Part shown: in pieces, positions 36,783 through 59,095 of the stretch
Position numbering within the stretch: the first letter of the stretch is position 1
Layout of the letters: each line of letters begins with the position of its first letter
IMG/VR virus record: IMGVR_UViG_3300027689_000001
Span: 1 to 64,000 of that record
DNA from: a virus
Taxonomy: Duplodnaviria > Caudoviricetes
Direction: 5' to 3' (one strand)
DNA: 64,000 nucleotides
Program-made: the position numbers and the translations under genes
The notes under the pieces: generated by a model
The model's input: only the letters and a program-made list of their open reading frames with translations
What the model was told of the DNA's origin: nothing
Databases searched by the model: none

Positions 36783-36879
36783 ATATGAAAGGGTCCATTT
36801 TTCTTATTTTTTGTAATCTCTTTTTTACTCTTCTAGATTGTAAATAAGAACGAATTATCGTTAATATTTTTTTAAACAT
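36775..36879 (-). CDS. 34-aa basic peptide (not in track)
   Basis: MFKKILTIIRSYLQSRRVKKRLQKIRKMDPFIYD; overlaps the upstream stop and downstream start (translational coupling); AAAGGA upstream. Confidence 0.7.
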   Translation of the reverse strand: MFKKILTIIRSYLQSRRVKKRLQKIRKMDPFIYD

Positions 36880-39584: not shown

Positions 39585-40809
39585 AACTTTTCTCCATCCA
39601 TGGATAAACACTTCTCCAACTTTGTCCCCTGCGTTGGTCAAGTCGATTTAAGTAGTTTTTCAGACGTTGTAATTTTACAGGGTCAGGTTCAGTCGAAACG
39701 ATCATATTACCAAAACCAGCAATATATGCTGTTGCATCTTTCCAGGGGCTGTTGGCAAGCGAATCATTCAATTTGTCTACAAACGGTTTCAATTCAGAAC
39801 CGAAAATTGCTGGATCCATAAACGTAGGAGAAGCAACAATATTAGCACCATAATTAATATGTTTTATCTTAGACCATTCGATTAATTTATCGACCAAAAC
39901 ATAAGCAGTCGGTAATGTTACTGACGATAATGTCGCCTGAATCGAGATCTTAACATTTTTTGATTGCAATAGAATGTTAAAATTATCTTGCCAGTTTTCT
40001 AGGGACATACCATGTCTAGCAAATTCTGCTTCTTTATCCCAGCAATCTATACTACAAACAATTTCAACCGATTTCAATTTACCATCTTCGACAAGTTTAT
40101 CGAGTTTTTGTATCGTTGCAATAAATTTAGGAGTAGGATGTTTGAGGTTTGAAAAGATTTTCCAATTTAATCTTGGGTGAGATCTTTGTTCAAAGAAACT
40201 TAAACATTCATAAAATTCTGGTTGGTATAATGGTTCACCGCCGAGCACTTGAAAGTCAAACAGTTCTTTGGAGTTGAAGTCCATCCAACTCCAAAATTTC
40301 TCTTTTATTTCAGCATAATTATCGACTGGTTTAAACGAACCGTCTAAATCATATTCGGATTCTAATGGACCATATTTCTTAATTTCTTGTTCGATTACGG
40401 AACTAAAAAGAGCATTGCAGTATACACATGCTTGATTACAAAGATTAGTAAAATAAACTTCTAAAATTCTTGGAGTAACTTTAGTTGCAAATGGATTATC
40501 TTTTAGTTCTGGGGGGCAACAATCGGCATCATTAATATATGCAGTGCGCTCACTCTCTCCACCAGCATCTTCAATTCTCTTGCAATATTCGCAACCGTTT
40601 CCAGGCCATTGTCCGTCAAGCATCTTCTCTCGATCTTTGACCTTTCCTGGATGGTTGTGGAAATCTTTAAAATCGATTTCATTCAAATCCCAACTATTGC
40701 ATCTGTGACAACTAGAGGTTGTGCCCTTTGAGAGAAAAATAGTACTCCACGTCCATTTGAATTGACATGCAGTTTTAGTTTCTATTGGAAACTTATGATA
40801 ATCAGTCAT
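39568..40809 (-). CDS. Radical SAM/twitch protein (4th)
   Basis: CQFKW..SCHRC..CEYC; CNQACVYC; LGGEPL. Confidence 0.9.
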   Translation of the reverse strand: MTDYHKFPIETKTACQFKWTWSTIFLSKGTTSSCHRCNSWDLNEIDFKDFHNHPGKVKDREKMLDGQWPGNGCEYCKRIEDAGGESERTAYINDADCCPPELKDNPFATKVTPRILEVYFTNLCNQACVYCNALFSSVIEQEIKKYGPLESEYDLDGSFKPVDNYAEIKEKFWSWMDFNSKELFDFQVLGGEPLYQPEFYECLSFFEQRSHPRLNWKIFSNLKHPTPKFIATIQKLDKLVEDGKLKSVEIVCSIDCWDKEAEFARHGMSLENWQDNFNILLQSKNVKISIQATLSSVTLPTAYVLVDKLIEWSKIKHINYGANIVASPTFMDPAIFGSELKPFVDKLNDSLANSPWKDATAYIAGFGNMIVSTEPDPVKLQRLKNYLNRLDQRRGQSWRSVYPWMEKSFDKFI

Positions 40810-42199
40810 GTCTTGTCCACCAATCGTATAATTCTGGATCTTCAGAATATATAGTTCTCAAATTAAGATTAGAATCATTTCTAATATGATCTAATAATTT
40901 TTGGTAATTCAATCCATTTTTAAATGATTGTTCTGCCTCATCGGGCCATTGTTCTTGAAAAGTTGGTCTATTCTTCATTTCCTGTAATGTTTTAATCAGA
41001 GTAAGTTGTTTATTCGTTCCACGGGGAATCATATACTCCAACAGAGAATCAATATGACGATCCAGAATATGTCGAGGCCAAGCAAACGGACTGAATACAA
41101 TATCTGCATGAAATGCAAACATAATTTTAGTTTCAATTCTAACGTCTAGTTCTTTACTGAGGTCGAAAAGGTTTTTGAGACTAAACATTCCTGGACCAGT
41201 AATGGTTAGATCAAGAACCATACGATCTTTGCCGTGTGGTAACTCGAGTCCTTTCTTAAAGTTCTCTAACCACTCTTTCCAAACTATTCCTTTGCGAATA
41301 AACTCTACGATCTCATCAGTTCCATCTATGCTTGCACAGATCAACCAGTTCTTAAACTGCGGGAGATAGTCATAAAGATTCTTACCGAAATAATCAACTC
41401 TACTTAGATTTGTATTATAACGTAAGTGGCAATTCTTTGCGCTGCCATTATCTACCATTTCTTGTAACGCCCACCAGTGGATATCATACATCAATGGTTC
41501 GCCGCCAACCCAGTAGCACTCTTCCACAATACCTCGAGTTACAGCATCGCGAAATTCTTCCTCTACCACTTCGGTCTGAAATTTTTGCATCTTTGCTTTG
41601 ACTTCTGGAATCATGAATGGTTGATTCTGTTTCGACCACATATTATGCTTACGCTTTTCTGCTTCCCAAGAAGAACTTAACTGTTCTCCGCACATGCGAC
41701 ATTTGAAATTACACAGATTACTAAACCGATAATCAAACGAAATAGGTTCCATTGTGGTATGACCTGTTTCGTCGGTTGAGTCAAAACATTCTTGAATCTT
41801 ATCATTAAATAGTGCGCCAGTGAACCAACTGCGATAGTTACTTACGCTGAGAATATCGTCGTTGCAAACATCGCACTGCGAGATACGTTCTCCCGCCATT
41901 AACTTGCGACGAATGTCTTTCATATATTCGCTGTTCCAGTGTTCCTTCAACGAGACTGGATTAAAATCATCTACCTCTGTTTTGCTTTCAGTAACTTCAC
42001 CATACTTGGAGTCATTACTCGCGTCGATGTATTGTTTCTGGAAACTATGCTGTTCTCTACTTGCACAGCACAGTCGTCTTTCCGCCTGTGGACTAATATA
42101 GGTGTGAGTCCACGGAGCAGTGCAAAAGACTTTATTTGGACTGTCTTCTTTTACTTTACCATGTTCCCACACAGGAAGAATTTTATCGCTCATTGACAC
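40802..42199 (-). CDS. Radical SAM/twitch protein (3rd)
   Basis: CTAPW..LCC..CDVC; CNFKCRMC; VGGEPL. Confidence 0.9.
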   Translation of the reverse strand: MSMSDKILPVWEHGKVKEDSPNKVFCTAPWTHTYISPQAERRLCCASREQHSFQKQYIDASNDSKYGEVTESKTEVDDFNPVSLKEHWNSEYMKDIRRKLMAGERISQCDVCNDDILSVSNYRSWFTGALFNDKIQECFDSTDETGHTTMEPISFDYRFSNLCNFKCRMCGEQLSSSWEAEKRKHNMWSKQNQPFMIPEVKAKMQKFQTEVVEEEFRDAVTRGIVEECYWVGGEPLMYDIHWWALQEMVDNGSAKNCHLRYNTNLSRVDYFGKNLYDYLPQFKNWLICASIDGTDEIVEFIRKGIVWKEWLENFKKGLELPHGKDRMVLDLTITGPGMFSLKNLFDLSKELDVRIETKIMFAFHADIVFSPFAWPRHILDRHIDSLLEYMIPRGTNKQLTLIKTLQEMKNRPTFQEQWPDEAEQSFKNGLNYQKLLDHIRNDSNLNLRTIYSEDPELYDWWTRHD

Positions 42200-43754
42200 C
42201 TAAACTATCTGTTTTGGTATTCCATCCATGTGCGATTTCGTCGCTGATATACCCTTCTTCGGTAGTAGCAGGATTACCAGTTCGTTCTTTCAATCCAGTA
42301 TCTTCTTTATAATTTTTACCAAGAATTTCTTCAGTTGTTGGAACTGGAACATCAACACTATCAATAAAGTCTACAAAAATTTGTGGGAATGTTTCGCGGA
42401 AGTTCTTACCACGACGCACATCATATTGTAGATAGAAATTCTTAAAGTCGTTCCACAACTTTGATTCTTCGCTGGTGTTTATATGTGGTGTTTTAATTAC
42501 GTCAAGGTAATCAATCAAACGCTGAACATGAGAACGTTCCATAAGAGAAAATAATTGTATGCCGTTTTTATCTCTTTCATCTTTACTTACGATGTCCAAC
42601 AACCATTTTTCCAATTTGTTCTTATAAAATTCCTTGATATTAATCGGGAGGATAGCAGGACTTTGGAAACTAGGAAACCGCAAAAGATTCAGGGTCATTG
42701 TTGGAAACTCTCTTCCATATGTTCGTTTTAGGTCGAGCATATCATCCATGAATTCAGTAATCGACGCCAAACAAAGACCATTAATTGTCATCATTATGTG
42801 CAATTTCTTTAGATTTCCTTCAGTAACTAATCGATGGATATTTTCTTTCCACTGATCGTATATCATACCGTCACGAATATAATCTGAGTGTTTTCCAAGA
42901 GATTCGTTACTGGTATACACTTCGAAATCAGGCACGTGATGCGACATCTCAATTAGTTTATCTAGTAACGCTTTCTTAGGAACAAGATTAGAATTCATCG
43001 CATATCTAAGTTTCTTGCCCTTCTCAGGATTGTTTTTGAACCAATCGAATAATTTCCACACTGATGCTGCCATCAAAGGTTCACCGCCAGTGATTCTAAT
43101 TTCTTGCAAATTGTCTTGAAGATCTGATTCCCACCATTTCCAAAATGCCTGAATGTAAGGATTGTTTTCTTCTTTTTCTGCAGCTGGTTTTGCCCACGGA
43201 GAATCATCGATAAAATGCCCTCGCCCATCACTTTGAATGTTACGGTACGGACCAAACTTCTTGATGTCTTTAACCCATGTAGTAGAAAATCCTGGATTGC
43301 AATATGAACAAGCAAAATTACAGGTGCGGTCAAAACTGATCTCGAGAGTTCTAAGAGTTACATCTTCTTCCCAAGGCATGACTGCAGCCTTTTGAATATC
43401 TTCTTGTGAGTAAATCCCTGTCTTGTATACTCGGTCAGAAACATTATTTCGACCAATGTCTTCCACCTTCCAACAATATTCACATTCATTTGGTCGCTTA
43501 CCTTCTTGCATCATCTTACGCATAAGTTTTTTATGCTGCGTATTATGAATTGCAGAAGGATTGTTTTCTAGTTCTTTTGGATCGATATTATGTCCAGGAG
43601 GGTGATGGCATGATGTTGTTTGTCCATGTCCTAACCAAATGGTAGCATTGTACCATTTTGCGGCACAAAATGTATCCGAAATCGGATCGATAACATTCTT
43701 CTTATACTCAAGAAAAATATCGGTCTCTTTTGTGTCCATTATAGTTCCTTGCAC
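42183..43754 (-). CDS. Radical SAM/twitch protein (2nd); close paralog of 36872..38404
   Basis: CAAKWYNATIWLGHGQTTSCHHPP; CNFACSYC; ITGGEPL. The start may be 43739. Confidence 0.9.
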   Translation of the reverse strand: MQGTIMDTKETDIFLEYKKNVIDPISDTFCAAKWYNATIWLGHGQTTSCHHPPGHNIDPKELENNPSAIHNTQHKKLMRKMMQEGKRPNECEYCWKVEDIGRNNVSDRVYKTGIYSQEDIQKAAVMPWEEDVTLRTLEISFDRTCNFACSYCNPGFSTTWVKDIKKFGPYRNIQSDGRGHFIDDSPWAKPAAEKEENNPYIQAFWKWWESDLQDNLQEIRITGGEPLMAASVWKLFDWFKNNPEKGKKLRYAMNSNLVPKKALLDKLIEMSHHVPDFEVYTSNESLGKHSDYIRDGMIYDQWKENIHRLVTEGNLKKLHIMMTINGLCLASITEFMDDMLDLKRTYGREFPTMTLNLLRFPSFQSPAILPINIKEFYKNKLEKWLLDIVSKDERDKNGIQLFSLMERSHVQRLIDYLDVIKTPHINTSEESKLWNDFKNFYLQYDVRRGKNFRETFPQIFVDFIDSVDVPVPTTEEILGKNYKEDTGLKERTGNPATTEEGYISDEIAHGWNTKTDSLGVNER

Positions 43755-45271
43755 TTTTTATAGAAATTATTTAATTCAGGAAAGGTCGTCATAAAATCAG
43801 TATTTCTTCTTTTGTCCATTTCGTCTACATACTCAGAAAAACGTTTCATGTCTAGTTGTTTCTGGCGAGGATCCATTCCTGATTTCAGTATATCTAGGTC
43901 TCGTTGAACCTTGTCGATTTCATATGGTTTGAATCCACGCAAACTTCTGTTATAATCTTCTTGCTGAACGTTATCGCGCATGAATTGTAGGCAGTCTTCG
44001 AATTGTTCAATCATCTCAGTTTCTTCGTGTAGTAATTTCATATTCAACCAAGAAGGACTGTGGAGCATAGGTATGTCGAACCAAATTCTTTGTGCGACAT
44101 TACGAATGAATGGAGGATGCTTGAAACCATCATGATCAGGTGGTTGAATTACTTTTCGTTCTTGTTTATCGAAAGCAAATTCTTCGCGAAGTTCTAGGAT
44201 CCATTCTAAGAATCCTCGCAGTCCAGGAACACTCAGAATATTAAATGTATTGATAATAGTAATACTTGTTCCTTGTGTTGAATGAAGAAACTTCGATACA
44301 TTTGATTTCAAGACAGCATAATCCATACCAGTTCGGATATATTCTGCTTGTTTACCAACACTATCGCAACTTACAAACAACGAGAAGTGTTTGATTGCTG
44401 GAGCAACATACCAATAATTACCACTATCTGGATTTAAACGGTCAGGGTTTTCCCACACTCTGACTTCTTCCAGTTTCTGAACCTTAGAAATAAACTTATC
44501 GAAAATATCAGGTTTTGGAGGACATAAGTTACTGGTAATGCTCACCTCAAGCAGAGAGTTGGGATGTTTATCAACATACTCCAGAACCTTCCACGTATTA
44601 TGATCCATCAAAGGTTCACCACCTGTCATGCGGAAAATCTTAAGATTCTTATAGAGATCTGGCCACCATTTCCAAAATGCCTCAACGTAGGGATTGTCTC
44701 GGTTCGCAACCTTCTTGGGCATCAGATTTATACGAGCGAGTGCATCAAGATCGTTATGCCTTGCATCGGTTAGTGGTATTGCACCATACTTTACGATTTC
44801 TTCTTCCCAAGCAGAACTTAGGTGTGGACTACAGTAAAGACATTTAAAATTACACGCCTGATTGAAGTTGACTTCCACGTATGCGGGAGTCCACGAGGCA
44901 TCTAATTCAGCATCTCCGAGAGTAATCTTCTCGAAGTCAGGAGAGTTCCACCATTCGCTACTACGATAATGTCGATCGCTCGTATGACCTGCATCTTCAA
45001 TACGCCAACAGTACGAACAACCTTTTGGTCGCTCGCCCTTGCGCATCATAGCACGTTCTTCAATTTTCTGGGGAGTATTGTGGAGTAATCCTGGATTTTC
45101 AGACAATCCTTCTAGAGGAATATCGTGTGTCGGCGGATGGTAGCAACTATGCGTCTTACCGTTAGTAAGATGCATACTGACCATATTCCATTTTGCAAGA
45201 CACATCGACGAACTAGCAGACTTCAGTCGCTCTTTCATCTTTTCTGTCACATCATGATATTCATTACTCAT
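43739..45271 (-). CDS. Radical SAM/twitch protein (1st)
   Basis: CLAKW..SCYHP..CSYCW; CNFKCLYC; MTGGEPL. Confidence 0.9.
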   Translation of the reverse strand: MSNEYHDVTEKMKERLKSASSSMCLAKWNMVSMHLTNGKTHSCYHPPTHDIPLEGLSENPGLLHNTPQKIEERAMMRKGERPKGCSYCWRIEDAGHTSDRHYRSSEWWNSPDFEKITLGDAELDASWTPAYVEVNFNQACNFKCLYCSPHLSSAWEEEIVKYGAIPLTDARHNDLDALARINLMPKKVANRDNPYVEAFWKWWPDLYKNLKIFRMTGGEPLMDHNTWKVLEYVDKHPNSLLEVSITSNLCPPKPDIFDKFISKVQKLEEVRVWENPDRLNPDSGNYWYVAPAIKHFSLFVSCDSVGKQAEYIRTGMDYAVLKSNVSKFLHSTQGTSITIINTFNILSVPGLRGFLEWILELREEFAFDKQERKVIQPPDHDGFKHPPFIRNVAQRIWFDIPMLHSPSWLNMKLLHEETEMIEQFEDCLQFMRDNVQQEDYNRSLRGFKPYEIDKVQRDLDILKSGMDPRQKQLDMKRFSEYVDEMDKRRNTDFMTTFPELNNFYKKCKEL

Positions 45272-45864
45272 TTAATACCAGTCACCATAAATCTGTAAAA
45301 ATGCCCACACTTCAACATACCAGCGTATTCTGGTTCTCTGACTCTGTTGATCAGCAGGAATTCCTCTAGAGTATCAGCAAGTCGAACATGCTCAGGATTA
45401 ACTAGATTATTTCCTTGGACTATGTATTTAGTCCCAGCAGGGATAGAGTTCCACCATGCATCGTAAACCTCTTGTGTTACATGTTCACTGCTGGTGTTGA
45501 TAACGAGATTCGGATATGGTTCATAAGACACCATACCATTGCTCATATCATGTTGTTGGTATTTAACATTCCTACTGAGATTGATTTGGTCAAATACAGT
45601 TTCACATTTAGAATCAAGATCTGTTGTTATGATATTAGTTTCAGGAAATCGTTCAGCAATAAATTGCGCCAGAATACCATACCAACCGCCGAAGATAACG
45701 ATAGATTTTGTCTCTTCTGGAATGCATTCGAGCAACCACTTCTTACTCTCGATCTGACTTGACCAGAAGTTTTCGGAGAATCTGTATGCATTATTCGGAT
45801 TATTGCGGATGTACTCCATCCACTTCATTACAATATCAAATTCAACCACGGCGCATTTTCGCAA
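45268..45864 (-). CDS. Class I SAM-dependent methyltransferase-like protein
   Basis: IVIFGGWYG motif I, TTDLD, VINTSSEH. Confidence 0.7.
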   Translation of the reverse strand: MRKCAVVEFDIVMKWMEYIRNNPNNAYRFSENFWSSQIESKKWLLECIPEETKSIVIFGGWYGILAQFIAERFPETNIITTDLDSKCETVFDQINLSRNVKYQQHDMSNGMVSYEPYPNLVINTSSEHVTQEVYDAWWNSIPAGTKYIVQGNNLVNPEHVRLADTLEEFLLINRVREPEYAGMLKCGHFYRFMVTGIK

Positions 45865-48133: not shown

Positions 48134-49249
48134 TTATCTTATAATGTCAATTTTTTCAATTGAGTCAGCATTCCAAACTTCTAGATCGCGGCGTAATCGA
48201 CCTTCTGCAACCAGATTATCATATCTAGAAGTTGCTTTACGCTTCCACCACGAAATAATATTATCCATATAATGTTTATCAAAGTTTTGTCCAGGAATTA
48301 ACTTATCCTGCTTGCCGAGAATAACTTCCTTGGAATTTTCATACCCGTATGTTGAAATATAGAAACGCTTCTTGGTGGTAATCTCTTTATTTAGTTTAAG
48401 CGCATCGCAGAACACCGAATACTGTTCGGATTCATGCTCCTTCAGTGATTTGCTGATGATGCTGTTCATCTTGTTCTGCATCTTCATCTTATATGATGCA
48501 ACACCCTCACGACCAAACAATGGCGCTCCACTATTTTTCTCGTAGAACCATTCCATGGTCTCGTCCCAGAAATCGTCGGAGAAAGAAAGAACAAAATTGC
48601 TAAGAGTGTCGCCTGTGTAACGGATAAACGGTTTCAATCCATCGTACTGAGATGCTTGCTTGATGCTACCATATAATGAGGTGGTTTCAAATAGACAAGT
48701 GTCCATGTTATACTTCTTGTTAAACATCTCGCGGAACTCATGCGAGGTGCAAAGAAGTGCAAGAAGTTTACCGCCCAGATAATTAAATCCGAACGGTTGA
48801 GCAGGAACAATGATGAACCCCATGACAGCATGTTTGTTGAACGACCGAAGATCGGGAACTTGTCCGAACCATTCATTACGTGGTCGTGAGTTTATGAATG
48901 GACTGGCAACTCGGCAGAATCCTACGTGCTTGCCAGTATTCTTTTCTCGTACGATGAACTTGATTTCCTTACCGAACGAATTCTCATTACAAAAGGAAGA
49001 AGTGATTTCTACCATTGTAGAAAATTCGCTCGGTGAAGGTTCATAGATCTCAAGATCCATGTCTTCAGGGTGCATATTAAAGTCGGAGAACAGATTGTTC
49101 TCAGGTTCAAACCCTGGAAGAGAGTGAGGAAGGGTTTTCAACCGCTCCAGTTTTTTCATGCGCATATGATCGTCAATACGACCATAATTTGACATGTAGT
49201 CAACGAATCGTTTTGCGATGTATTCTGCGTCGTGTTTTTCTAATATCAT
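48134..49249 (-). CDS. DUF4338/Druantia DruA-like protein
   Basis: GFCRVASP, RNEWFG, IVPAQPFGFNYLGGKLLALL, TTSLYG..SQY. Confidence 0.65.
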   Translation of the reverse strand: MILEKHDAEYIAKRFVDYMSNYGRIDDHMRMKKLERLKTLPHSLPGFEPENNLFSDFNMHPEDMDLEIYEPSPSEFSTMVEITSSFCNENSFGKEIKFIVREKNTGKHVGFCRVASPFINSRPRNEWFGQVPDLRSFNKHAVMGFIIVPAQPFGFNYLGGKLLALLCTSHEFREMFNKKYNMDTCLFETTSLYGSIKQASQYDGLKPFIRYTGDTLSNFVLSFSDDFWDETMEWFYEKNSGAPLFGREGVASYKMKMQNKMNSIISKSLKEHESEQYSVFCDALKLNKEITTKKRFYISTYGYENSKEVILGKQDKLIPGQNFDKHYMDNIISWWKRKATSRYDNLVAEGRLRRDLEVWNADSIEKIDIIR

Positions 49250-49792
49250 TTAACCAGTATAAAGCATTTTTTTAATAAAGTCAATGATTTTTTGCTGATC
49301 GTCAAAAGATTCATTAAGAAACTCGGTCATCTCCATCTGAAGAACGAAGTTAGAGCGAATGTTGTTAATTTTACTCTCACGACCCTTCAACCAAGTCTCG
49401 TCTTGATTGCTACCACGTTCTGCATAGCGAACATTCCGAGTTTCCTTAGTGGTTTGTAGATAAACGATACAGGTGTCATACTTATCGACGCATTCTTCTA
49501 GGAATGAACCTGTGCAAAGACGATCGCCTTCGAATAGAACAATGTCATTGGGAGCACGAGATGCGAGAAACTTCACTGCCTCTGGTTGAACTGCCATTGA
49601 CATCTTGTCAGTGCCGCCAAACACTTCGCCTTCTTCATACTTACCTAAAACGTAAATGTTGTCCTTATTATGATAGGGAACCAACTTTACATCAGTCTTC
49701 ACTTCGCGAGAAATGCCAATCTCGTCGAGCAAACGTTTCATAAGGGTTGACTTACCGCTTCCAGGTTCGCCGAAAATTGCAATTACATTCAT
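49250..49792 (-). CDS. P-loop nucleotide kinase of the type found with DNA hypermodification genes
   Basis: GEPGSGKSTL, GGTD, FEGDRL, RYAERGSNQ; overlaps the transferase gene. Confidence 0.75.
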   Translation of the reverse strand: MNVIAIFGEPGSGKSTLMKRLLDEIGISREVKTDVKLVPYHNKDNIYVLGKYEEGEVFGGTDKMSMAVQPEAVKFLASRAPNDIVLFEGDRLCTGSFLEECVDKYDTCIVYLQTTKETRNVRYAERGSNQDETWLKGRESKINNIRSNFVLQMEMTEFLNESFDDQQKIIDFIKKMLYTG

Positions 49793-50811
49793 CCAAATAA
49801 ATCCTCTAATCCAACTGGTTTCTGTTCAACATCAAACATCCAATTCATTCTATCTAGTGTTCTAGACCGAACGTATTCACCACACTTGTCCTTATTAACA
49901 CCATACCGCGAAAGCAATCGAGAGTCAAGGATTTCTTCGCGAGATTGCCATAAAACATTCCACTCAATACCATACCAACCGTCTGCTGCTACTTTATTAA
50001 TCTCGTCTGCTTGACGATCTAGATAAAATCCTAGATATCGCGACGACCTTTCTCGAAAGATTTTCTTGAACGAGCAAAGACAGGTTTCCATAGTAAATGC
50101 GTCGAACTGTGGCGCAAGAGTTGGATAGCGATGACGTAATTCATCCAGAATCGACTGAGACTGATCTTCCAACCACTGATATTCCGCTTGAGTGAGTTTA
50201 CCATTAATCCATTCTTCCTTATCGAGAGCATAACAGAGACCATTGCGGTGTGACTTGCTACCTGAATAGTCATTCAACATTAGACTGGTAGGTTCGATCT
50301 TAATTCCTGCAGTATGCTTTAGATGCTGCATATAGAACCAAGTCGTGTAGCGACCGAACTTATGATAATTGGTATTGATAACCTTCCAAAGATTATCGAA
50401 GTTTTGAGTTTCGTTATCGCCGTAGTGAGATTCTAATACATCACGTTGAAGTTTCTTACCCATAAACTTCTGATACGACTCAAACATAGAAGGCAAATGC
50501 CCTTTATTGTATTTGGTATCTGTTTGATAACGAAGTCTTTTATAGTTTTCGTTATTCCACCATGTAATACGGTCTACAGTCGCAAGTTCGTAGTCTGGGA
50601 ACTCATTCTTGAGCACCCAAGATGTTGGAAGGTAATAGGTGTTACCGTATAACCAGCACAACCAAATACGTTCCTCGTCATTGTGTTCATATCGCTTATT
50701 GAGGTAGTTGGTCTGCCAGACCGAAGGATCACAATCCTTGTGACTAACAGACCAAGCATACCAGCGAATGAATAATTCTCTGTTAGATACTTCGATCCCA
50801 GAAAGACTCAT
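49789..50811 (-). CDS. Amino acid:DNA transferase / aGPT-pyrophosphorylase-like protein (HhH-glycosylase fold)
   Basis: DCDP, WLCWLYGNTY, FGRYTTWFYMQHL, SHRNGL, METCLCSFKK, RYLGFY. Confidence 0.75.
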   Translation of the reverse strand: MSLSGIEVSNRELFIRWYAWSVSHKDCDPSVWQTNYLNKRYEHNDEERIWLCWLYGNTYYLPTSWVLKNEFPDYELATVDRITWWNNENYKRLRYQTDTKYNKGHLPSMFESYQKFMGKKLQRDVLESHYGDNETQNFDNLWKVINTNYHKFGRYTTWFYMQHLKHTAGIKIEPTSLMLNDYSGSKSHRNGLCYALDKEEWINGKLTQAEYQWLEDQSQSILDELRHRYPTLAPQFDAFTMETCLCSFKKIFRERSSRYLGFYLDRQADEINKVAADGWYGIEWNVLWQSREEILDSRLLSRYGVNKDKCGEYVRSRTLDRMNWMFDVEQKPVGLEDLFG

Positions 50812-52321
50812 ATTTCCTCACAATAATATTGCGAGCAGTGCTTGTAGTCATATTAAACAAATGTAACGGAGAATTGGTATCCAACTTAGTACCAGTCACA
50901 TCGAATACAATATCTTCGTCGATGATTTCATCAGAAAGATATTTATCGAAGCAATAGGCAATCCATCCACAATATAGTGCACGGTCGACTTTATTTTTAG
51001 AAGTCTTAGTTGCACCATCAGGAATAATGCGACGCGAAGTCCACATATTATTCACGTGAGGATTAGTAGTACCATGAATGGAATCTGAAGTTTGCAACTC
51101 GTCCATCATAATGAACAGATTGATCATCGAGGGATATTTCAACGTCGAATAAAATCCATTTACATAGGTTTTATTGGATGGTCGAGTAAACGGAAAATAT
51201 CCTGCTTTTAGATAATCCACCAAACGATTGATACCTTCTATAACCTTGTCGCGTTGCTCACCCTTAGTGGTCATGAGATAACGAATTAGCATTCCCATCA
51301 ATGGAGAAGTCAAAGACTTAGGAACATTATCGCGAGAAATAATATTACCAAGAGTAACAAATTCTTCAATGAAGTAATCAAGAACTTCAGTGGTCTTGAT
51401 TGCCTTTTCCTGCATATCATTCGAGTTAAGTCCCGCGAGATTGATGGGGTCATGTTCACCAACAGGAACATACTGATCGACGGCAACAACTGCAATGTCA
51501 TAAACCTTCTCACCCTTTTGAAAAACTGTAGGGAGATTCAAATGGTAATTCTTGTAACGAAGATAACCGCTCAGTTTTTCAGAGAAAGTTTCCGCAGTAT
51601 CGCTGGAGTCAATTGAGTGGTAAAGACGTTCTGCTTCTTCTTTATCATTTACAGGATAGAAAAGAACAGTCCAATTCTCAGGTTTGACATAATCAGGAAA
51701 CTGAAGGTTGTTATTGAAGATATGAGTTCGCGTGTTACCGTCAAGACGTTCAATTTTTCCGTCAGGATAAACCGCAACTTGCATTATACCATGCGTCGCT
51801 AAAGAAACATGCCCAATTGCACGCTTAGTCTTTTCCCAACGCAATGTTTCATTACGCTGGCACCAGACTGCAGCCCACGACTGAGCAATTTCTGCAGGAA
51901 CATCAGTTCGAACAGAAATCTTTTGACTCTTCAATTCAGCAAAGATTTGGGAAAGATCATAATTAATTACATTAGACGTTGATGTTTCAGATCCAATAAG
52001 AGTATCGATGATACCATTATCATACCAAAGTTTAAGAAGTTCGGTCGACTTCTCTGTCAGTTTCGATCCCTTGCGAAGATTATCTTCACGAGAAATCCAT
52101 TGTAAGTTGTCATCGCGACAAATTACCGAAACTGGGATATTGTGCTCGTAACCAAACTTGATCGAAATAGTATGGTCTAAATTTAATTCTTGACCATAAG
52201 ATCCGATCGGAAGAGGAATATTTTTCTTCTTCAAATCAGTAAGTTCGCGAGCTTTTGTTTCATAAGACTTGTAGTCACTGCTGACAGTGTTAATAAAATT
52301 AATCATAAAAAATACTTTCAT
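50783..52321 (-). CDS. Hypothetical protein: HNH-like N-terminus plus ParB/DGQHR-like (DGNTR) domain
   Basis: LDHTISIKFGY..DNLQWISREDNLRKG; CQRNE..ERLDGNTRT; has its own promoter at 52426-52454. Confidence 0.55.
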   Translation of the reverse strand: MKVFFMINFINTVSSDYKSYETKARELTDLKKKNIPLPIGSYGQELNLDHTISIKFGYEHNIPVSVICRDDNLQWISREDNLRKGSKLTEKSTELLKLWYDNGIIDTLIGSETSTSNVINYDLSQIFAELKSQKISVRTDVPAEIAQSWAAVWCQRNETLRWEKTKRAIGHVSLATHGIMQVAVYPDGKIERLDGNTRTHIFNNNLQFPDYVKPENWTVLFYPVNDKEEAERLYHSIDSSDTAETFSEKLSGYLRYKNYHLNLPTVFQKGEKVYDIAVVAVDQYVPVGEHDPINLAGLNSNDMQEKAIKTTEVLDYFIEEFVTLGNIISRDNVPKSLTSPLMGMLIRYLMTTKGEQRDKVIEGINRLVDYLKAGYFPFTRPSNKTYVNGFYSTLKYPSMINLFIMMDELQTSDSIHGTTNPHVNNMWTSRRIIPDGATKTSKNKVDRALYCGWIAYCFDKYLSDEIIDEDIVFDVTGTKLDTNSPLHLFNMTTSTARNIIVRKYESFWDRSI

Positions 52322-52425
52322 TGTAAACTACGAAAGGAATTTGCGTGGTGAACCATTAACGGTTGTGACAAATCAACATTCGGAGTTTTGTTTCATGTAA
52401 TAAGGGACATCCTCATTACAATACC

Positions 52426-52454
52426 ATTATACTAAACTTTACAGGGAAAGTAAA
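52426..52454 (-). promoter_or_regulatory. Promoter TTTACT-N17-TATAAT followed by a hairpin
   Basis: Minus-strand motif; leader hairpin TGTAATGAGG-ATGTC-CCTTATTACA at 52396-52420. Confidence 0.6.
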
Positions 52455-52984
52455 TGGTTTTCTTCAATTTTTACAAATACTTTTACGCATCCACCCTTAC
52501 CTTTTCTATATACTGCTTTATTAATAACAGTATCGTTGATGTCATATAAACCATCGCGGTAGGTTGGACCATTGAGTTTGAACATAGACAGTTGACTGCC
52601 TGACTTCTGCTCACCGAGGAAAGTGAATCCACATTTCTCGTAGAATTGCACTGCATCTGCTTCTGCTGACACTCGGAAGTATGTGGCATTGTATCGATGC
52701 GCTTCAGCAATGGCAAAGTCACATAACGTCCTACCAACACCCTTGCCCCGCGAAGCATAGAATGTATGGAGCAACTGCAGGTTAGCAATGACGGGAGTTC
52801 GCTTAGAGAATGATACGATGATGGCGCCGAGAAGATTATCATCTTCCCAGACGCCCATACAGTTATCCCAGAGTTCTTGCATGTCTGCCTTTGCGACAAA
52901 AGTCTTTGCAAAGGAATCTTGCTTCTGAGTTGTAATATGTTTAGTAAATTCCTCGCGGGTTGTCGAACGCAACCTAGACAACAT
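52439..52984 (-). CDS. GNAT-family acetyltransferase
   Basis: RGKGVGRTL motif A, AVQFYEKCGF; start at MLSRLR (52984) inferred. Confidence 0.85.
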   Translation of the reverse strand: MLSRLRSTTREEFTKHITTQKQDSFAKTFVAKADMQELWDNCMGVWEDDNLLGAIIVSFSKRTPVIANLQLLHTFYASRGKGVGRTLCDFAIAEAHRYNATYFRVSAEADAVQFYEKCGFTFLGEQKSGSQLSMFKLNGPTYRDGLYDINDTVINKAVYRKGKGGCVKVFVKIEENHLLSL

Positions 52985-53858
52985 CGTGGAATTCTCGTTT
53001 CTTTTCACCACGAGACTTATCATACTTGGTTTTAATCCAACCAGCATATTCATTTAGATCCCAGATGAATGGTGGGAACTTGAAATCATTGTTAGCAAGG
53101 ATTTCTTTGACACTCGGTCCATCATTCAATGCTGCATCAATAAATGCAGTTGCAAACTTGAACTGATCTTCCATCTCACGACGATTTACAGTTGAACGGA
53201 AGCAACGGAACTCAATTGTGCCAGTATGCTTCATGCAATACATGTTGATCGCATAACGGAAGGGTCGACCCATCGAAACGCCATCTTTACCTGCTGCATG
53301 CATCTTGATAAACGAATTAAAATCTGTTGCAAGGTTGGCAATATTGTCACACATGTAATCAGGCATCTCACGACCACCGTCGAACTTGAGATATGTTGTA
53401 GCACCCTTTGCCGACTTCATACCACCACCATCGCGGAACTGGTAACATGCTTCGATAGTGTCTTTCTGATTTACCTTGATATATGCAGTGAGACGCTTCA
53501 ATGCATCAATGTCATCTTTCAGTCCTGGAACAAAAACGTGAAGGTGACCATGATTGACACAGGAAGCAGTTGGTTCATTACCAAAATCTTCGAACAGCAG
53601 ATGAATGTCCATGATACGATCAACCTGCTCCTCCCACGTACGAGTAGGTTTGGTATTAATCTCACCACCGAAGGCAGGTTCCTTCCCCAACGGATCACAA
53701 GCGATGTAGCGATAGGGTGCATGAATGTTTACAATATCAGTTTCCGCAAACTCCCATGCACCAAGTTCTTCTGGAATTTCAACGCGACGATCTATGTCAC
53801 CCCACTCAATTTCGTACCCATAAGTGAAGTCTTCAGGATTATATTTCATATTTACCAT
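52974..53858 (-). CDS. Amidoligase (COOH-NH2 ligase, Amidoligase_2-like)
   Basis: TYGYEIEW, GGEINT, NHGHLHV, RYAIN, TIEFRCF. Confidence 0.8.
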   Translation of the reverse strand: MVNMKYNPEDFTYGYEIEWGDIDRRVEIPEELGAWEFAETDIVNIHAPYRYIACDPLGKEPAFGGEINTKPTRTWEEQVDRIMDIHLLFEDFGNEPTASCVNHGHLHVFVPGLKDDIDALKRLTAYIKVNQKDTIEACYQFRDGGGMKSAKGATTYLKFDGGREMPDYMCDNIANLATDFNSFIKMHAAGKDGVSMGRPFRYAINMYCMKHTGTIEFRCFRSTVNRREMEDQFKFATAFIDAALNDGPSVKEILANNDFKFPPFIWDLNEYAGWIKTKYDKSRGEKKREFHDVV

Positions 53859-54534
53859 ATTGCAAGTCCTTATTGTTAGTATTTACCGCTGTTTCAGTAA
53901 TTTCACCATTAGAAACAGTATAAACTATATTCATGTTACAGTCAATAGTTTTTTCTACACCTGCACGATTAAAAATATCATGTGTAGAAGCAACAATTAC
54001 GCCATTTTCAGTTCTATACTGTGTAAGTGGGCGTTTACCGTTGCGGTAGAAGCGAAAAATCTTGTCAGAATGAACTTCACACGCTGAAATTGACGCATCA
54101 GGCCAACGTTCAAGTGGATTTTCACCATTTTCAACGGTTTTTAGCAAAAGTTCGCTGTCATTTCGTGTTTCAGTCGCGTAAGAACTGATTTTTGACCAAT
54201 TTTCGGGCAATTCTTGTGTAATTACACCATTATGAACGATTGCAACCTTGTCAGTGAACAATGGTTGGTTAAATTCTAGGTCTGAAGTGCTATAACGACA
54301 GTGTGCAACCATGTAAAGGTTGCCATCTTCATTCAGCATGCTATACATGTCAATGCCATCAAGGAATTCATCTGCTGGAAGTGGTGCTTTGATGGTAAAG
54401 ATGTGATTTTTACGAACAAACGACACACCTGTTGCGTGCAATCCCCGAATACGAGACTCAGAGATAACACGCTTCAGGAGCATCATGTCTTCAGCACTGG
54501 GATTTCTAAGAAATGCTCCAACAACACCACACAT
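53839..54534 (-). CDS. Class II (Ntn) glutamine amidotransferase
   Basis: N-terminal MCGV, RGLHATG, HCRYST, NQP, VHNGVI, NDSE. Confidence 0.88.
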   Translation of the reverse strand: MCGVVGAFLRNPSAEDMMLLKRVISESRIRGLHATGVSFVRKNHIFTIKAPLPADEFLDGIDMYSMLNEDGNLYMVAHCRYSTSDLEFNQPLFTDKVAIVHNGVITQELPENWSKISSYATETRNDSELLLKTVENGENPLERWPDASISACEVHSDKIFRFYRNGKRPLTQYRTENGVIVASTHDIFNRAGVEKTIDCNMNIVYTVSNGEITETAVNTNNKDLQYGKYEI

Positions 54535-55871
54535 TAGAACAAATCTGCCAATGAAGACTCCACCGTGAACGCTGTAGGGTGATACTTCTCTAAGATTTCA
54601 GTGCCCATCTTGTTCTCGAGATATTCATACCACTCAGGTTCGTCCCACATTCCAGGCGAAACGCCATTCCAGAGTGGGCGATAGAACTTGTGGTTACGAT
54701 CCATTCGACGATCGGTTACAAACTGTTCACGAGTCTGCTCATATTCCCATGGTCCAAGATCTAGCATTGCTTCGCGAAAATAGCAAACCAACGAAATACG
54801 TTCAGCATCTGGAGTATCTAGAACAATCTCAGTATTAGCATGCATAATCTCGTGATTGTTAACCAGCAAAAGATCTCCTGGCCGAACATTCACTGCCATA
54901 CGATATTCTGGGAATACCAGATAACCACCAGTATAGTTACCCTTACCAACTACGAGAAGATTCGACAATCCACTGTCTAGATCGCCAGCATCTCGGTGAC
55001 ACGCAGTGCGGAAAGTCTTGTTAACGGTAATGGTGGTAAACACTGTCTCGGGAACGAGGAAGCGAGGGTCCAACTTGTCTGCCGCTGCTCGCTGATTACC
55101 CCAACGCCATGGTAGGAGTTCCTTAAAACCTCTGTCCAGCGACTGGAGGAACGGGAACGAGAGAGCAAACTTCTCTGGTTCATCGCGAGTGTATGAGGTG
55201 GCGCGACCGAAGGGAATGCGAGGATAACGGTCGAACCATCCAGCAACGCCAGAAAATACTGACTTCGCGTAGTTGGTCTGTGAAACCCACTTAGTGGCAA
55301 TCATCTTCGCTTCTTCTGCGCACTGTTCCTTGGTCTTATTATGAAGACCGTCGACCCACTTGTCAAACCATCCGAAGTATTCGGGATATGTCTTACAGAC
55401 CTGACTGCGCAACCAGACTTGACCACGAGTCTCGTCCTCAGTAGAACGACCTGCGCCTTCATACTTCTTACGAATGGACTCAATGGAAAGGTCATCAATC
55501 AAACGACCGTCTGTATTTAGCAGGAAGTCTAGAACCTCGAGTTCGTAACTGGTAACCCAATCACGTCCACCGCGACCTTCGACACCGAGAAGTTCTCCGC
55601 GAGGTCCAGCAGCGAGTCCACGATTCTGGGATTCTTTTGCTGCCTCGCGGAGACCGATGTATGCTGAATCTCGTTCTTCCTGTGTAAACCAGTTCTTGCG
55701 GAACTTGAACGCAATACGCTGCTCATTCCCAAGACTGGGTGAACCCATGACCGATTCCATGTAGCAATCTGTGTCTTCATTAATAACAATATCATAATGA
55801 CTGTCATCAACATATTGACCAAGCAAATGCTCACAATCGAGTTTAGAATCTGCAACAATAATTCTTACCAT
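54534..55871 (-). CDS. TET/JBP-like Fe(II)/2-oxoglutarate dioxygenase
   Basis: FTTITVNKTFRTACHRDAGD (HxD), GGYLVFPEY, GDLLLVNNHEIMHAN (distal H), RISLVCYFRE (2OG-binding R). Confidence 0.8.
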   Translation of the reverse strand: MVRIIVADSKLDCEHLLGQYVDDSHYDIVINEDTDCYMESVMGSPSLGNEQRIAFKFRKNWFTQEERDSAYIGLREAAKESQNRGLAAGPRGELLGVEGRGGRDWVTSYELEVLDFLLNTDGRLIDDLSIESIRKKYEGAGRSTEDETRGQVWLRSQVCKTYPEYFGWFDKWVDGLHNKTKEQCAEEAKMIATKWVSQTNYAKSVFSGVAGWFDRYPRIPFGRATSYTRDEPEKFALSFPFLQSLDRGFKELLPWRWGNQRAAADKLDPRFLVPETVFTTITVNKTFRTACHRDAGDLDSGLSNLLVVGKGNYTGGYLVFPEYRMAVNVRPGDLLLVNNHEIMHANTEIVLDTPDAERISLVCYFREAMLDLGPWEYEQTREQFVTDRRMDRNHKFYRPLWNGVSPGMWDEPEWYEYLENKMGTEILEKYHPTAFTVESSLADLF

Positions 55872-57171: not shown

Positions 57172-57983
57172 ACTTTATCTAAGAATTTCTGAGTGACTGC
57201 TTCGTGCCATTCTTTTCCTGGATGCATCAGATCTCGACCCATTGTTCCCGTCCATCCTTGGTCAGTCATAAGAGTTGTTAACTCTATTTTATCCAGAGGT
57301 TTTTCTATGAGTGCTGCACCGATGCTGTTGCATATAGACTGCACACCCAAGGAACACTTCAATAGGTTCATTTCGGCATTAGCAGGGTGCGACAACCAAG
57401 TATTATAAAACGGTTCAACCTTTTCTCTGACGCCAGTTCTTTCAAGATGCTTCAAATAGTTTGGCATTAATTGAATAATCGCTTTGTCCGCCAATATCTC
57501 CATTCTTCCCCCGTAGGGTGTGAGCATCATCACATATTTCGGACGAAGTCTAGGGATCCAGTGGTGCGCCAAACGGAAACACATATCGGGTCCACCACCT
57601 CCCACACCAAGGTTATATCGACGAAGTCCAAGTCTGCTCGCCACTTTATACGCCCAAGTACTCTCCAAATCTACGCCAATACCGACAGTAAGGGAGCAAC
57701 CGAGGAAAAGCACGGAGTCGTCTGGTTCGTAAGTAAACTCCTCCGAGCGAAACCCGTCTTTGTTAAAGGTATACGTAATATTGTCTTTCGTCCACCCGTT
57801 CTTCTCCAGCAATGCACGCTGCTTCGGGTCTGCCATGTTCTGGTCGAACAGTTCTTCGAAGTCACTGGGGCACCAATTAACTGTCGTGTCGATATACTTG
57901 TTTAAACCATACCAACTCTGCCCGTAACTATCACATGTTTCACTCACTAGCAAATCTCCCCTTTGTAATATCTTTCCACTCAT
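57168..57983 (-). CDS. SGNH-like protein
   Basis: YTFNKDGFRS, FLGCSLTVGIG, NLGVGG, RDLMHPG (DxxH). Confidence 0.65.
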   Translation of the reverse strand: MSGKILQRGDLLVSETCDSYGQSWYGLNKYIDTTVNWCPSDFEELFDQNMADPKQRALLEKNGWTKDNITYTFNKDGFRSEEFTYEPDDSVLFLGCSLTVGIGVDLESTWAYKVASRLGLRRYNLGVGGGGPDMCFRLAHHWIPRLRPKYVMMLTPYGGRMEILADKAIIQLMPNYLKHLERTGVREKVEPFYNTWLSHPANAEMNLLKCSLGVQSICNSIGAALIEKPLDKIELTTLMTDQGWTGTMGRDLMHPGKEWHEAVTQKFLDKV

Positions 57984-58578
57984 CTGGTGATACTCTTTCC
58001 TTATTCGCCATAAAATCCTTATAGAGATCTACCTCATTCTGCAACTCCTCTAGGGAATATCCCACATTCTCCACATATACATCCTCTGCTGTAACAGAAT
58101 CTCCGACATACGAATCCGTGCGACGAGACTGAAAGAGTTCGTCTCTTCTAGGAACATAGTTATTCAGTTCGTAGAAGTCTATAATACGAAAATTCACTCC
58201 CACCAAGATATTATACATGTATGGAAAGGAGTGAGAATATAACGCATGCAGAGATTGTCTATAGTTTTCTTTCCCAAGTTCGACAGCATATCTAAAGGTC
58301 TTCGCCTCACTCCACTCATCCTCAGCGAGAGCAACCAAATCCCTATGCATGTCTGTAGTCAGTAGTATCATGTCTTGTGTAGCATAGGAAGTCGCAGACC
58401 TAACACGATCCAATGGATGGCGAAGAACTACGATGGGATTGTGGTGTTCTTTCCATTCCTTTACGCTATGTGTATGCATCTCAGAATACGCTTCCATACC
58501 ATGATAGTAATACATGTTGGTATGCCCACAGCGAGTCGCTGCTAGTATCGCGTATTTACTGTTACATCGAATGAACAT
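57940..58578 (-). CDS. Sulfotransferase-like protein (paralog 1)
   Basis: TRCGHTN (5'-PSB-like loop), VVLRHPLDRVRSA (3'-PB-like). Confidence 0.5.
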   Translation of the reverse strand: MFIRCNSKYAILAATRCGHTNMYYYHGMEAYSEMHTHSVKEWKEHHNPIVVLRHPLDRVRSATSYATQDMILLTTDMHRDLVALAEDEWSEAKTFRYAVELGKENYRQSLHALYSHSFPYMYNILVGVNFRIIDFYELNNYVPRRDELFQSRRTDSYVGDSVTAEDVYVENVGYSLEELQNEVDLYKDFMANKERVSPDEWKDITKGRFASE

Positions 58579-59095
58579 GGTTATCTCTCTGTGTGTTCGT
58601 CAATTTTTTCCATTCTTCTACTGATACTCTGTCCTTGGTTACCATAAATTCGTTATAGATGTCCAATTCGGTTTGCAACATCTGAAAGGAGTAGAACTCA
58701 TTCGCGACATAAACATCCTCAATCGTTGCATCTCCGACACGCGAATTGCTGCGATATGACTGCATCTTTTCCCTAGGAATATACTGCTCAAGGTCATAAA
58801 AATCTATGATGCGAAAATCAAATCCTATCATATTGTGCATATAGGGTAAAGAGTGTGTACCAAAAATTATGAGATTTTGTTCCTCATCCTTAATAAGTTC
58901 GCAATACGCTGCAGCAGACATCACACGGTCTAAAGGATTACGAAGAACTACTATAGGATTGTGATGCTCTTTCCAATGCCGAAAAAGAAACCCAGTGTCA
59001 GAATGTAGTGCCCGACCGAAGTAATGATACATGTTGGTATGCCCACAGCGAAGTTTCACCATGACAGCACAATTACTGGAGCAGAGAATAAACAT
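58562..59095 (-). CDS. Sulfotransferase-like protein (paralog 2)
   Basis: LRCGHTN, VVLRNPLDRVMSA; clearly homologous to 57940..58578. Confidence 0.5.
   Translation of the reverse strand: MFILCSSNCAVMVKLRCGHTNMYHYFGRALHSDTGFLFRHWKEHHNPIVVLRNPLDRVMSAAAYCELIKDEEQNLIIFGTHSLPYMHNMIGFDFRIIDFYDLEQYIPREKMQSYRSNSRVGDATIEDVYVANEFYSFQMLQTELDIYNEFMVTKDRVSVEEWKKLTNTQRDNHVHSM

Follow-up and report, generated by a model that had tools for sequence, protein, structure and literature searches.

Thymidine hypermodifications shield phage DNA from restriction enzymes, and the enzymes that build them act on bases in polymeric DNA. Phage PaMx11 makes 5-acetylaminomethyl-2'-deoxyuridine (5-acetylaminomethyl-dU) with the kinase gp49, the glycine:DNA transferase gp46, the FAD lyase gp47, and the acetyltransferase gp48 (PMC8989533; Wen et al. 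2024, PMC11472151); its 5-hydroxymethyl-dU is formed before replication via a ThyA homolog, and its amine arises via glycine addition and flavoenzyme cut-back. An island of eight genes at positions 48134-55871 of a 64,000-nucleotide stretch of viral DNA (the window, from IMG/VR record IMGVR_UViG_3300027689_000001) resembles the PaMx11 pathway in its kinase, its amino-acid:DNA transferase (AADT) with the same Glu-Thr-x-x-Cys motif, and its GNAT acetyltransferase, with 5-aminomethyl-dU as the likely common intermediate. The island differs in that it lacks the flavoenzyme, the ThyA homolog, and the glycine-binding Trp and Lys residues and has instead a Tet/JBP oxygenase, a glutamine amidotransferase (GATase), and an amidoligase. 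It very probably directs the oxidation of thymine (T) in the phage's own DNA, after which a nitrogen-containing side chain would be built on the base.

Phage 5-methylpyrimidine dioxygenases (5mYOX) have demonstrated T-dioxygenase activity, and GATases, P-loop kinases, and AADTs are described as "consistently linked" to a ParB-dependent subclass of them (O'Toole et al. 2026, PMC13229309). Compared by description, the Clade C1 clusters of this subclass share with the island a Tet/JBP enzyme without a C5-methyltransferase, a GATase, a kinase (PF18751), an AADT (PF18724), and a protein with, in the case of the island, a predicted ParB N-domain fold. In contrast to these clusters, the ParB-fold protein of the island has 512 amino acids (aa), carries an N-terminal HNH motif, and is PF02195-negative, and the 445-aa oxygenase has about 195 N-terminal residues to which the short phage homologs do not align. 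The paper on the subclass (PMC13229309) assigns no final product.

Metagenomic contigs with TET_JBP, 5-hydroxymethyluracil DNA kinase (5-HMUDK), and aGPT-Pplase2 genes (sequences 22-25) were reported earlier, with amidoligase and glutaminotransferase genes noted as being of unknown function, and an on-DNA T oxidation logic was proposed for TET_JBP contigs (Lee et al. 2021, PMC8989533). Like the island, these contigs are missing a dUMP hydroxymethylase and place Tet/JBP beside thymidine-hypermodifying genes, but there the genes are listed as co-occurring only. Base J (JBP1/2 plus a glucosyltransferase) and the phage TAGT clusters have in common with the pathway proposed for the island a handle of 5-hydroxymethyluracil (5hmU) made from T on DNA; the island would differ in using a kinase/AADT route, not glycosylation.

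The type of gene neighborhood is already published, and what is added here is a specific, testable role for the GATase. The GATase and amidoligase genes that lie beside many kinase/AADT clusters have stood as a noted but unexplained feature since 2021, and the literature searched assigns neither a product nor a role for the GATase or the amidoligase to this neighborhood type. An earlier sequence-only reading of the window had likewise stated that no product was assigned; its description of similar neighborhoods as computational predictions falls short, given the contigs of Lee et al. 2021 and the activity shown by O'Toole et al. 2026. Three findings presented below are new in that Lee et al. 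2021 (PMC8989533) do not describe them: the fusions of GATase and AADT, the association with one AADT clade, and the docking prediction. They turn the unexplained GATase into a simple testable question.

The window covers the opening 64 kb of a viral record of 150 kb (CheckV completeness 92%), and its source, judging by large structural genes and nearest relatives, is a T4-like myovirus from metagenomes. As the sequence-only reading had it, 48134-55871 holds a co-oriented, mostly overlapping gene run; the checked coordinates of all eight open reading frames (ORFs) agree, and all lie on the minus strand. With Pfam matches judged against curated cut-offs, the five families it named as Tet/JBP, GATase, GNAT, ADDT-type transferase, and P-loop kinase all score above threshold. 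The HRD..H..R motif of the oxygenase and the MCG of the GATase that it had noted are present, as is a kinase Walker A. Among the profile families it named, Tet_JBP, ADDT, Ploopntkinase (as Ploopntkinase3), and GATase (as GATase_6) exceed their cut-offs and Amidoligase_2 does not, the ligase being supported by its fold. The six functions it listed hold, but the range includes two more genes, which encode a 512-aa protein with HNH and ParB-like parts and a 371-aa DruA-like protein.

The Amidotransferase and Its Proposed Transferase Partner

The AADT (340 aa, 49789-50811) belongs to clade 2 of the aGPT-Pplase enzymes. The pathway first proposed for the island depends on an ADDT match for this gene, and Pfam ADDT (PF18724) matches it with an E of 1.3e-19 (71.3 bits versus a cut-off of 26.2), the essential Glu and Cys being present. 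Residues E242-T243-x-x-C246 align with the catalytic Glu243, Thr244, and Cys247 of PaMx11 gp46, and these columns are invariant or nearly so with PaMx11 gp46, M6 gp51, and one ViI-type AADT; the Glu-Thr-x-x-Cys motif is essential in M6 gp51, ViI gp247, and PaMx11 gp46. The glycine-binding Trp146 and Lys150 of PaMx11 gp46 (FGPW helix) correspond to Tyr155 and Phe159 in the island AADT (FGRY), which is therefore not filed as a glycine:DNA transferase (PUGT type). A profile search of the AADT against PDB sequences returned nothing usable. The neighboring 180-aa P-loop kinase (49250-49792) is of the 5-HMUDK type: it matches Ploopntkinase3 (PF18751) with an E of 7.5e-15 (55.4 bits versus 27), carries the Walker A sequence GEPGSGKST, and is 32% identical to the 5-HMUDK gp54 of phage M6 over 97 aa (E 8e-6).

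The GATase (231 aa, 53839-54534) is a stand-alone class II (Ntn) enzyme that matches GATase_6 with an E of 1.3e-9 (38.6 bits versus a cut-off of 27). Its N-terminus is MCG, and Cys2, R30, R80, N102-G103, and D126 are invariant across 18 homologs; from knowledge of GlmS and PurF, we take Cys2, R30, R80, and N102-G103 to be the class II glutaminase catalytic positions. Among the cultured phages of a collection of 50,697 phage records there is no close homolog, the best being 29% identical (PaP3-like Pseudomonas phages).

The window proteins were mapped onto 80 viral loci with oxygenase relatives at 49-97% identity. Among the Tet-linked loci, a GATase is adjacent in 22/22 cases where the AADT is at least 49% identical to that of the island, versus 0/14 where it is 21-30% identical; the latter fourteen loci combine an oxygenase, a kinase, and the divergent AADT. 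Taken as independent pairs on the Tet tree, 6/6 are concordant for the GATase-AADT association (p 0.031). On the AADT tree, 17 GATase-adjacent AADTs form one clade (support 92) that is sister to three fusion domains (support 89), and GATase-less AADTs group with the ViI-type AADT (support 91).

These fusion domains come from a search for longer proteins carrying the GATase profile, which yielded six clusters with an N-terminal GATase and a C-terminal AADT in one polypeptide (P0171, P0172 with 11 members, P0173, P0174, P0175, and P0176). P0174 was found in two independent samples. Five of the fusion clusters are Pfam-annotated as ADDT; four of these begin with MCG, and all five keep E[ST]xxC. 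The fusions measure 555-668 aa and lie on other phage contigs (L106:250-2016, L107:476-2143, L108:3579-5333, L109:1364-3118, and L105:7886-9814, with L108 and L109 carrying the same protein). Four of the six clusters were viewed in contig context: three adjoin HMUDK/HMUD kinase families together with candidate ThyA-like hydroxymethylases and have no amidoligase in their surroundings, and the fourth, P0175 (L105), has Ku, DNA ligase, and AAA genes as neighbors. The natural GATase-AADT fusions are good systems in which to probe the amination proposed below.

A complex predicted from the AADT, the amidoligase, and the GATase, with the GATase as the scored partner, reaches a score of 0.77, against 0.00 for the best of three controls. 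The score mark is reached by 58/80 solved complexes and 2/110 mismatched pairs, counts that apply only roughly here, the job having relied on own alignments and on three chains. Between runs, at least 36% of contacts agree, and the partner pLDDT is at least 85. All confident contacts listed join residues 40-46, 68-80, 85, and 280-286 of the AADT to residues 1, 28-33, 81, 83, 103-104, 183-186, and others of the GATase. The contacting GATase residues flank the Cys2, R30, R80, and N102-G103 positions, and the face that carries those residues meets the AADT. On GATase-amidoligase binding, the run gives no verdict.

Adjacency, fusions, tree, predicted docking, and the lost glycine pocket agree that the GATase belongs with this AADT clade. 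That it feeds ammonia to the AADT is somewhat probable, with several points weighing on the other side. The adjacency may only mirror block transfer of the cassette. The glycine pocket is also lost in ViI-type (serine) AADTs, so its loss does not single out ammonia, and the complex score is the model's own confidence, from a job unlike the calibration. Moreover, the GATase is fused to GNAT in one cluster (P0167) and to the amidoligase in two (P0169, with 3 members, and P0170). Because the genes for the GATase and the amidoligase lie side by side in the cassette and overlap, read-through artifacts are possible for P0169 and P0170, but a real GATase-amidoligase partnership may also exist.

Owing to these GATase-amidoligase fusions, an amino-acid route keeps its standing as the main rival. 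The AADT would transfer a whole amino acid to phosphorylated 5hmU, the amidoligase would use ammonia from the GATase to turn the free carboxylate of that amino acid into a carboxamide, and the GNAT would acetylate its amine. All characterized AADTs transfer amino acids, as in M6, ViI, and PaMx11, and the overlap of 20 nucleotides (nt) between the GATase and amidoligase genes fits this route as the fusions do. It is nevertheless doubtful. Three Tet-linked loci with the order Tet-GATase-small GNAT-like-AADT-kinase keep the GATase with the AADT and the kinase but have neither an amidoligase nor a slot gene (the gene that lies between GNAT and AADT in the island), and three GATase-AADT fusion contexts likewise have no amidoligase. 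The fusion clusters number six for GATase-AADT versus two for GATase-amidoligase, and every confident contact of the predicted complex is between the GATase and the AADT.

For the preferred ammonia route, M6 gp51 offers a chemical precedent. This enzyme forms a Cys-C6 adduct and an exocyclic methylene, and the methylene intermediate is open to reaction with nucleophiles and reductants from outside, which makes attack by ammonia chemically plausible. The activated intermediate of M6 and ViI is written as the monophosphate 5-PmdU, which corrects the sequence-only reading, where 5hmU was taken to be pyrophosphorylated in these phages; pyrophosphate is reported for PhiW-14 and SP10. Among class II amidotransferases, PurF couples an Ntn glutaminase to pyrophosphate displacement, and N-terminal-Cys glutaminases occur both fused and split. 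By analogy, the island glutaminase would supply ammonia, and its partner would displace a leaving group of the phosphate type. The acceptor would differ from that of PurF in being a base of polymeric DNA, activated via a Cys-C6 adduct, with an acceptor domain of helix-hairpin-helix glycosylase-like fold, and the likeness is one of analogy, not of acceptor homology.

Taken together, the Tet/JBP dioxygenase would oxidize T in phage DNA to 5hmU, as its family and the published activity of related phage enzymes suggest, and the P-loop kinase, by its family, would phosphorylate the hydroxymethyl group to give 5-phosphomethyl-dU. Cys246 of the AADT would then attack C6, the phosphate would be expelled, and an exocyclic methylene would form. 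Ammonia freed from glutamine by the AADT-docked Ntn-GATase would be the nucleophile, leading to 5-aminomethyl-2'-deoxyuridine. Thymine hypermodification through 5hmU is highly probable, and the whole chain of T oxidation, 5hmU phosphorylation, and AADT amination with GATase ammonia is given a little better than an even chance. If true, the direct conversion of phosphorylated 5hmU to 5-aminomethyl-dU would be a reaction new to either family and would reach the PaMx11 intermediate by a shorter path. It would add glutamine-dependent DNA amination to the known reactions, explain a widespread metagenomic gene pair, and predict a new base.

The Oxygenase and the Probable Origin of 5hmU

The 445-aa oxygenase (54534-55871) is assigned to the Tet/JBP family of 5mYOX enzymes on the basis of Pfam and motifs. 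Tet_JBP (PF12851) matches residues 240-367 with an E of 2.9e-23 (82.3 bits versus a cut-off of 34.9), and phrog_24024 matches full-length (E 2e-151). H292-R-D294, H340/H344, and R358/R366 provide a candidate Fe(II) HxD...H triad and a 2-oxoglutarate-binding Arg, the identity of the ligand His and of the Arg being ambiguous. Matches to PDB sequences (CcTet and NgTet) are weak. Compared with its counterparts in Stenotrophomonas phage DLP6, phage C48C1, and Caulobacter phage Cr30, the oxygenase shows 49%, 46%, and 44% identity, respectively. Its N-terminal 235 residues have no Pfam hits, and the Atlas leads for them are weak (0.80-0.82) and again Tet_JBP clusters. In Cr30, a cultured isolate, an oxygenase and an AADT-like gene (L002:15293-16474) lie near an annotated inositol-1-phosphate synthase, which represents a different tailoring set.

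Judged from sequence, the oxygenase is most likely a thymine dioxygenase that gives 5hmU in DNA, with T favored by the context. The ThyA family includes the dUMP and dCMP hydroxymethylases, and no ThyA-family (Thymidylat_synt) gene was found in the 150-kb record; the same holds for a C5 DNA methyltransferase. The record does encode ThyX, outside the window (G000:C1:88391-88972, minus strand, locus L003; E 1.6e-43). With ThyX present and neither a ThyA-family enzyme nor a C5-methyltransferase in the record, ordinary dTMP would be made and T most likely oxidized after replication. The sequence-only reading had singled out a dUMP hydroxymethylase and a C5-methyltransferase as the genes to look for, and its proposal that the oxygenase makes the hydroxymethyl handle on DNA fits this gene content. 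Two points tell against such a reading of the oxygenase. The record is 92% complete and breaks off at 150,000 bases exactly, which means that a gene for either a hydroxymethylase or a C5-methyltransferase may be located beyond it, and some 195 N-terminal residues do not align to the short phage Tet homologs HTVC112P and P12024L.

The oxygenase could instead act on 5-methylcytosine (5mC), in which case the island would hypermodify cytosine, not thymine. Clade A and B phage Tet enzymes oxidize 5mC, which is also accepted by some T-dioxygenases. This alternative is nonetheless very improbable: no C5-methyltransferase was detected in the 150-kb record, the partner kinase and AADT are of families characterized on 5hmU, and the enzymes linked to a GATase, a kinase, and an AADT are placed among the T-dioxygenases (O'Toole et al. 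2026, PMC13229309).

The Amidoligase, the GNAT, and the Predicted Side Chain

The 294-aa protein encoded at 52974-53858 is, from its AlphaFold model, an amidoligase, i.e., an ATP-dependent carboxylate-amine ligase with the glutamine-synthetase fold. The Pfam Amidoligase_2 (PF12224) match is below threshold (E 0.029, 14.7 bits versus 22) and covers the last 36 profile residues only. The model (pLDDT 88, pTM 0.89) has the glutamine-synthetase/carboxylate-amine ligase fold, with a VIA Z of 10.7 to YbdK (rmsd 4.8 Å, 222-226 residues aligned). Residues 4-275 give a Z of about 10 to glutamine synthetases, glutamate-cysteine ligases, GmaS, and PafA, and the 225 chains at Z of at least 8 all belong to the glutamine-synthetase-fold superfamily. 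Foldseek returns YbdK with a probability of 0.99 and a weak E of 0.0025. Since the Foldseek E values are weak, the fold calls for this model and for that of the 512-aa protein rest on uniform hit lists and the VIA Z.

Of the acidic, His, and Arg residues on the active-site strands, E16, E18, E66, H103/H105/H107, E216, and R218 are invariant, and the relative of the amidoligase inside fusion P0170, 31% identical, matches Amidoligase_2 with an E of 4.6e-8. There are 597 homologs, the best 120 at 69-88% identity, and none is close among the cultured phages of the collection, where the best reach 25-27%. For the 294-aa, 512-aa, and 371-aa proteins, neither sequence nor profile searches against PDB sequences yielded anything usable. 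The amidoligase named in the sequence-only reading is thus confirmed at the level of the modeled fold, for which the Amidoligase_2 match alone would be insufficient.

The GNAT (204 aa, 52439-53053) matches Acetyltransf_10 with an E of 1.6e-12 (48 bits versus a cut-off of 23.6) and also Acetyltransf_7 and _1. Its similarity to the PaMx11 5-NmdU acetyltransferase gp48 is confined to the acetyl-CoA motif region (E 3e-7, 59 aa). Minimal cassettes made up of GATase, GNAT, AADT, and kinase would yield the PaMx11 product, 5-acetylaminomethyl-dU, by a shorter route.

In the full island, a speculative further step would have the amidoligase use ATP to join a carboxylate to the amine and the GNAT acetylate the remaining free amine. 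To our knowledge, the characterized ligases of this fold (glutamine synthetase, glutamate-cysteine ligase, GmaS, PuuA, and PafA) activate the γ-carboxyl of glutamate. Since the fold relatives do so and glutamate is the by-product of the glutaminase, the γ-carboxyl of glutamate is speculatively the most likely carboxylate, and the outcome would be an amide-linked, acetylated, uncharged side chain. This specific γ-glutamyl/acetyl product is quite unlikely to be exactly right. The same tentative grade applies to the scheme as a unit, in which the GATase and the AADT clade would form a two-subunit DNA aminase (fused elsewhere), the amidoligase would re-attach the glutamate by-product, and the GNAT would cap it to give N-acetyl-γ-glutamyl-aminomethyl uracil. 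Such a base, if true, would be one not yet seen in any DNA. The earlier notion that amidotransferase, amidoligase, and GNAT build or cap the substituent is supported and can be sharpened to a specific GATase-to-AADT ammonia route. The product is inferred from sequence comparison and models, which weighs against it.

The Slot Gene, the DruA-like Gene, and Related Loci

The island is compact. The Tet/JBP oxygenase (54534-55871) and GATase (53839-54534) genes share base 54534, the GATase and amidoligase genes overlap by 20 nt, the amidoligase and GNAT genes by 80 nt (an overlap retained in relatives), the 512-aa gene and the AADT gene by 29 nt, and the AADT and kinase genes by 4 nt; the kinase and DruA-like genes abut. 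A 117-nt gap between the GNAT gene and the 512-aa gene is the sole break in this series. Promoter and terminator scans were at chance (27 found versus 23.8 expected), and no operon-signal claim is therefore made. When the island was compared by megablast with the 50,697 phage records, no match emerged, the relatives there being distant and recognizable at the protein level only.

The slot gene (50783-52321) encodes a 512-aa protein in three parts: an HNH motif at the N-terminus, a domain of the ParB N-terminal/sulfiredoxin fold in the middle, and a C-terminal part that is helical. In its AlphaFold model (pLDDT 86; Foldseek E weak, 0.04), residues 131-244 match pNOB8 ParB, ParB-CDP, Noc, KorB, PadC, and Srx with Z values of 7.3-5.0, the best ParB-fold match having a Z of 7.3 and an rmsd of 3.5 Å over 97 aligned residues. 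Forty-six homologs were found, and D49, H50, N72, N81, and D194-G-N-T-R198 are invariant in 45. Pfam ParB_N (PF02195) has no hit in this protein or elsewhere in the genome.

An ORF of 435-518 aa occupies the GNAT-AADT slot in 12/13 distinct full cassettes, several with a DGN..R/S core. The slot alleles differ between genomes that are 96-98% identical across the island (L005:13482-15023 versus window 50783-52321). The slot protein of the 97% relatives has 513 aa, sub-threshold ParB hits (E 0.011 and 0.027), and an N-terminus that matches a homing-endonuclease model (E 5e-4), and a 21-column motif (hhalign probability 7%, E 0.005) is all that the two kinds have in common. The amidoligase and GNAT genes that flank the slot are 91-92% identical, versus 96-98% for the other genes.

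The exchange of slot alleles between near-identical genomes, with its lower flank identity (91-92% versus 96-98%), fits a mobile or self-serving nuclease, either a homing endonuclease or a GmrSD-like modification-state reader, that takes no part in biosynthesis. The invariant HNH residues D49, H50, N72, and N81 agree with such a role, as do the count of 46 homologs versus 597 for the amidoligase, the gene's own 117-nt intergenic gap, and weak structural matches to BrxU/GmrSD and SspE (Z 3.5-3.8). However, almost every full cassette has the slot filled, by proteins that are alike in size and have a common core motif, which points to a selected function tied to the cassette. A nuclease of this kind is rated just short of an even chance.

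The ParB N-terminal fold at residues 131-244 (Z 7.3-5.0) and the 435-518-aa protein, often with the DGN..R/S core, in 12/13 distinct full cassettes would also suit a ParB-type activator needed by the oxygenase on double-stranded DNA, as in the ParB-dependent 5mYOX subclass, which is linked to exactly the same enzyme set. An activator is possible but unlikely. An oxygenase 97% identical to that of the island goes with a different slot protein that has the 21-column motif in common, and cassettes with a 70% identical oxygenase have no slot gene. The published ParBs begin with a nucleotide-binding domain and have no nuclease domain, whereas an HNH motif is present in the 512-aa protein and the alternative slot protein resembles a homing-endonuclease model (E 5e-4). 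The ParB homologs of the subclass also have a C-terminal dimerization domain, for which no counterpart was recognized in the 512-aa protein. The reported Asn (for Q52) and Asp/His (for E93) correspond, by eye, to Gln155 and Asn196 here.

The last gene of the island (48134-49249) encodes a 371-aa DruA/DUF4338-like protein. Pfam DruA (PF14236) matches residues 85-193 with an E of 7.7e-12 (45.4 bits versus 27), covering profile positions 73-182 of 297 only; PADLOC DruA matches with an E of 7e-9, and phrog_19197 matches full-length. Its Atlas clusters are 91-98% viral, within a viral family that numbers hundreds of members. Druantia partner genes are absent from its vicinity, and the literature on DruA gave no biochemical function. 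The gene flanks the island in amino-type and glycosyl-type relatives, in the nearest clade only, and may be backbone rather than pathway.

The closest relatives (oxygenase 97% identical) keep the order Tet-GATase-amidoligase-GNAT-slot-AADT-kinase-DruA. A sister clade (oxygenase 74-77%) retains the oxygenase and the DruA-like gene with the same flanks and has glycosyl-type genes between them. These are either a TET-associated glycosyltransferase (PF20691, E 7e-12; L008:11377-12186) or a NAD epimerase with a UDP-galactopyranose mutase (GLF, E 2.5e-52; L012:6487-9452), which suggests a base-J-like or galactofuranosyl modification of 5hmU. Their location at the position of the amino cassette fits a common 5hmU handle. 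Across the survey, the Tet tree implies at least 15 changes in the type of cassette that follows the Tet gene, from which it follows that the module downstream of Tet has been exchanged repeatedly. These switches between amino and glycosyl chemistries, at least 15 in number, are direct evidence for modular evolution of DNA modification in environmental T4-like phages.

Elsewhere in the window, 34511-45864 (minus strand) contains six tandem radical SAM genes, in two of which SPASM domains precede the radical SAM core; next come a 283-aa gene without a Pfam family and then a NodU/CmcH-type carbamoyltransferase (Carbam_trans_C, E 2.7e-52). This operon was rejected as part of the pathway, since the 97% relatives do not have it beside the island. 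On the other side of the island, the 212-aa and 177-aa products of 57940-58578 and 58562-59095 (minus strand) match the same single ORF in relatives (e.g., L005:4870-5361) and therefore look like diverged tandem paralogs.

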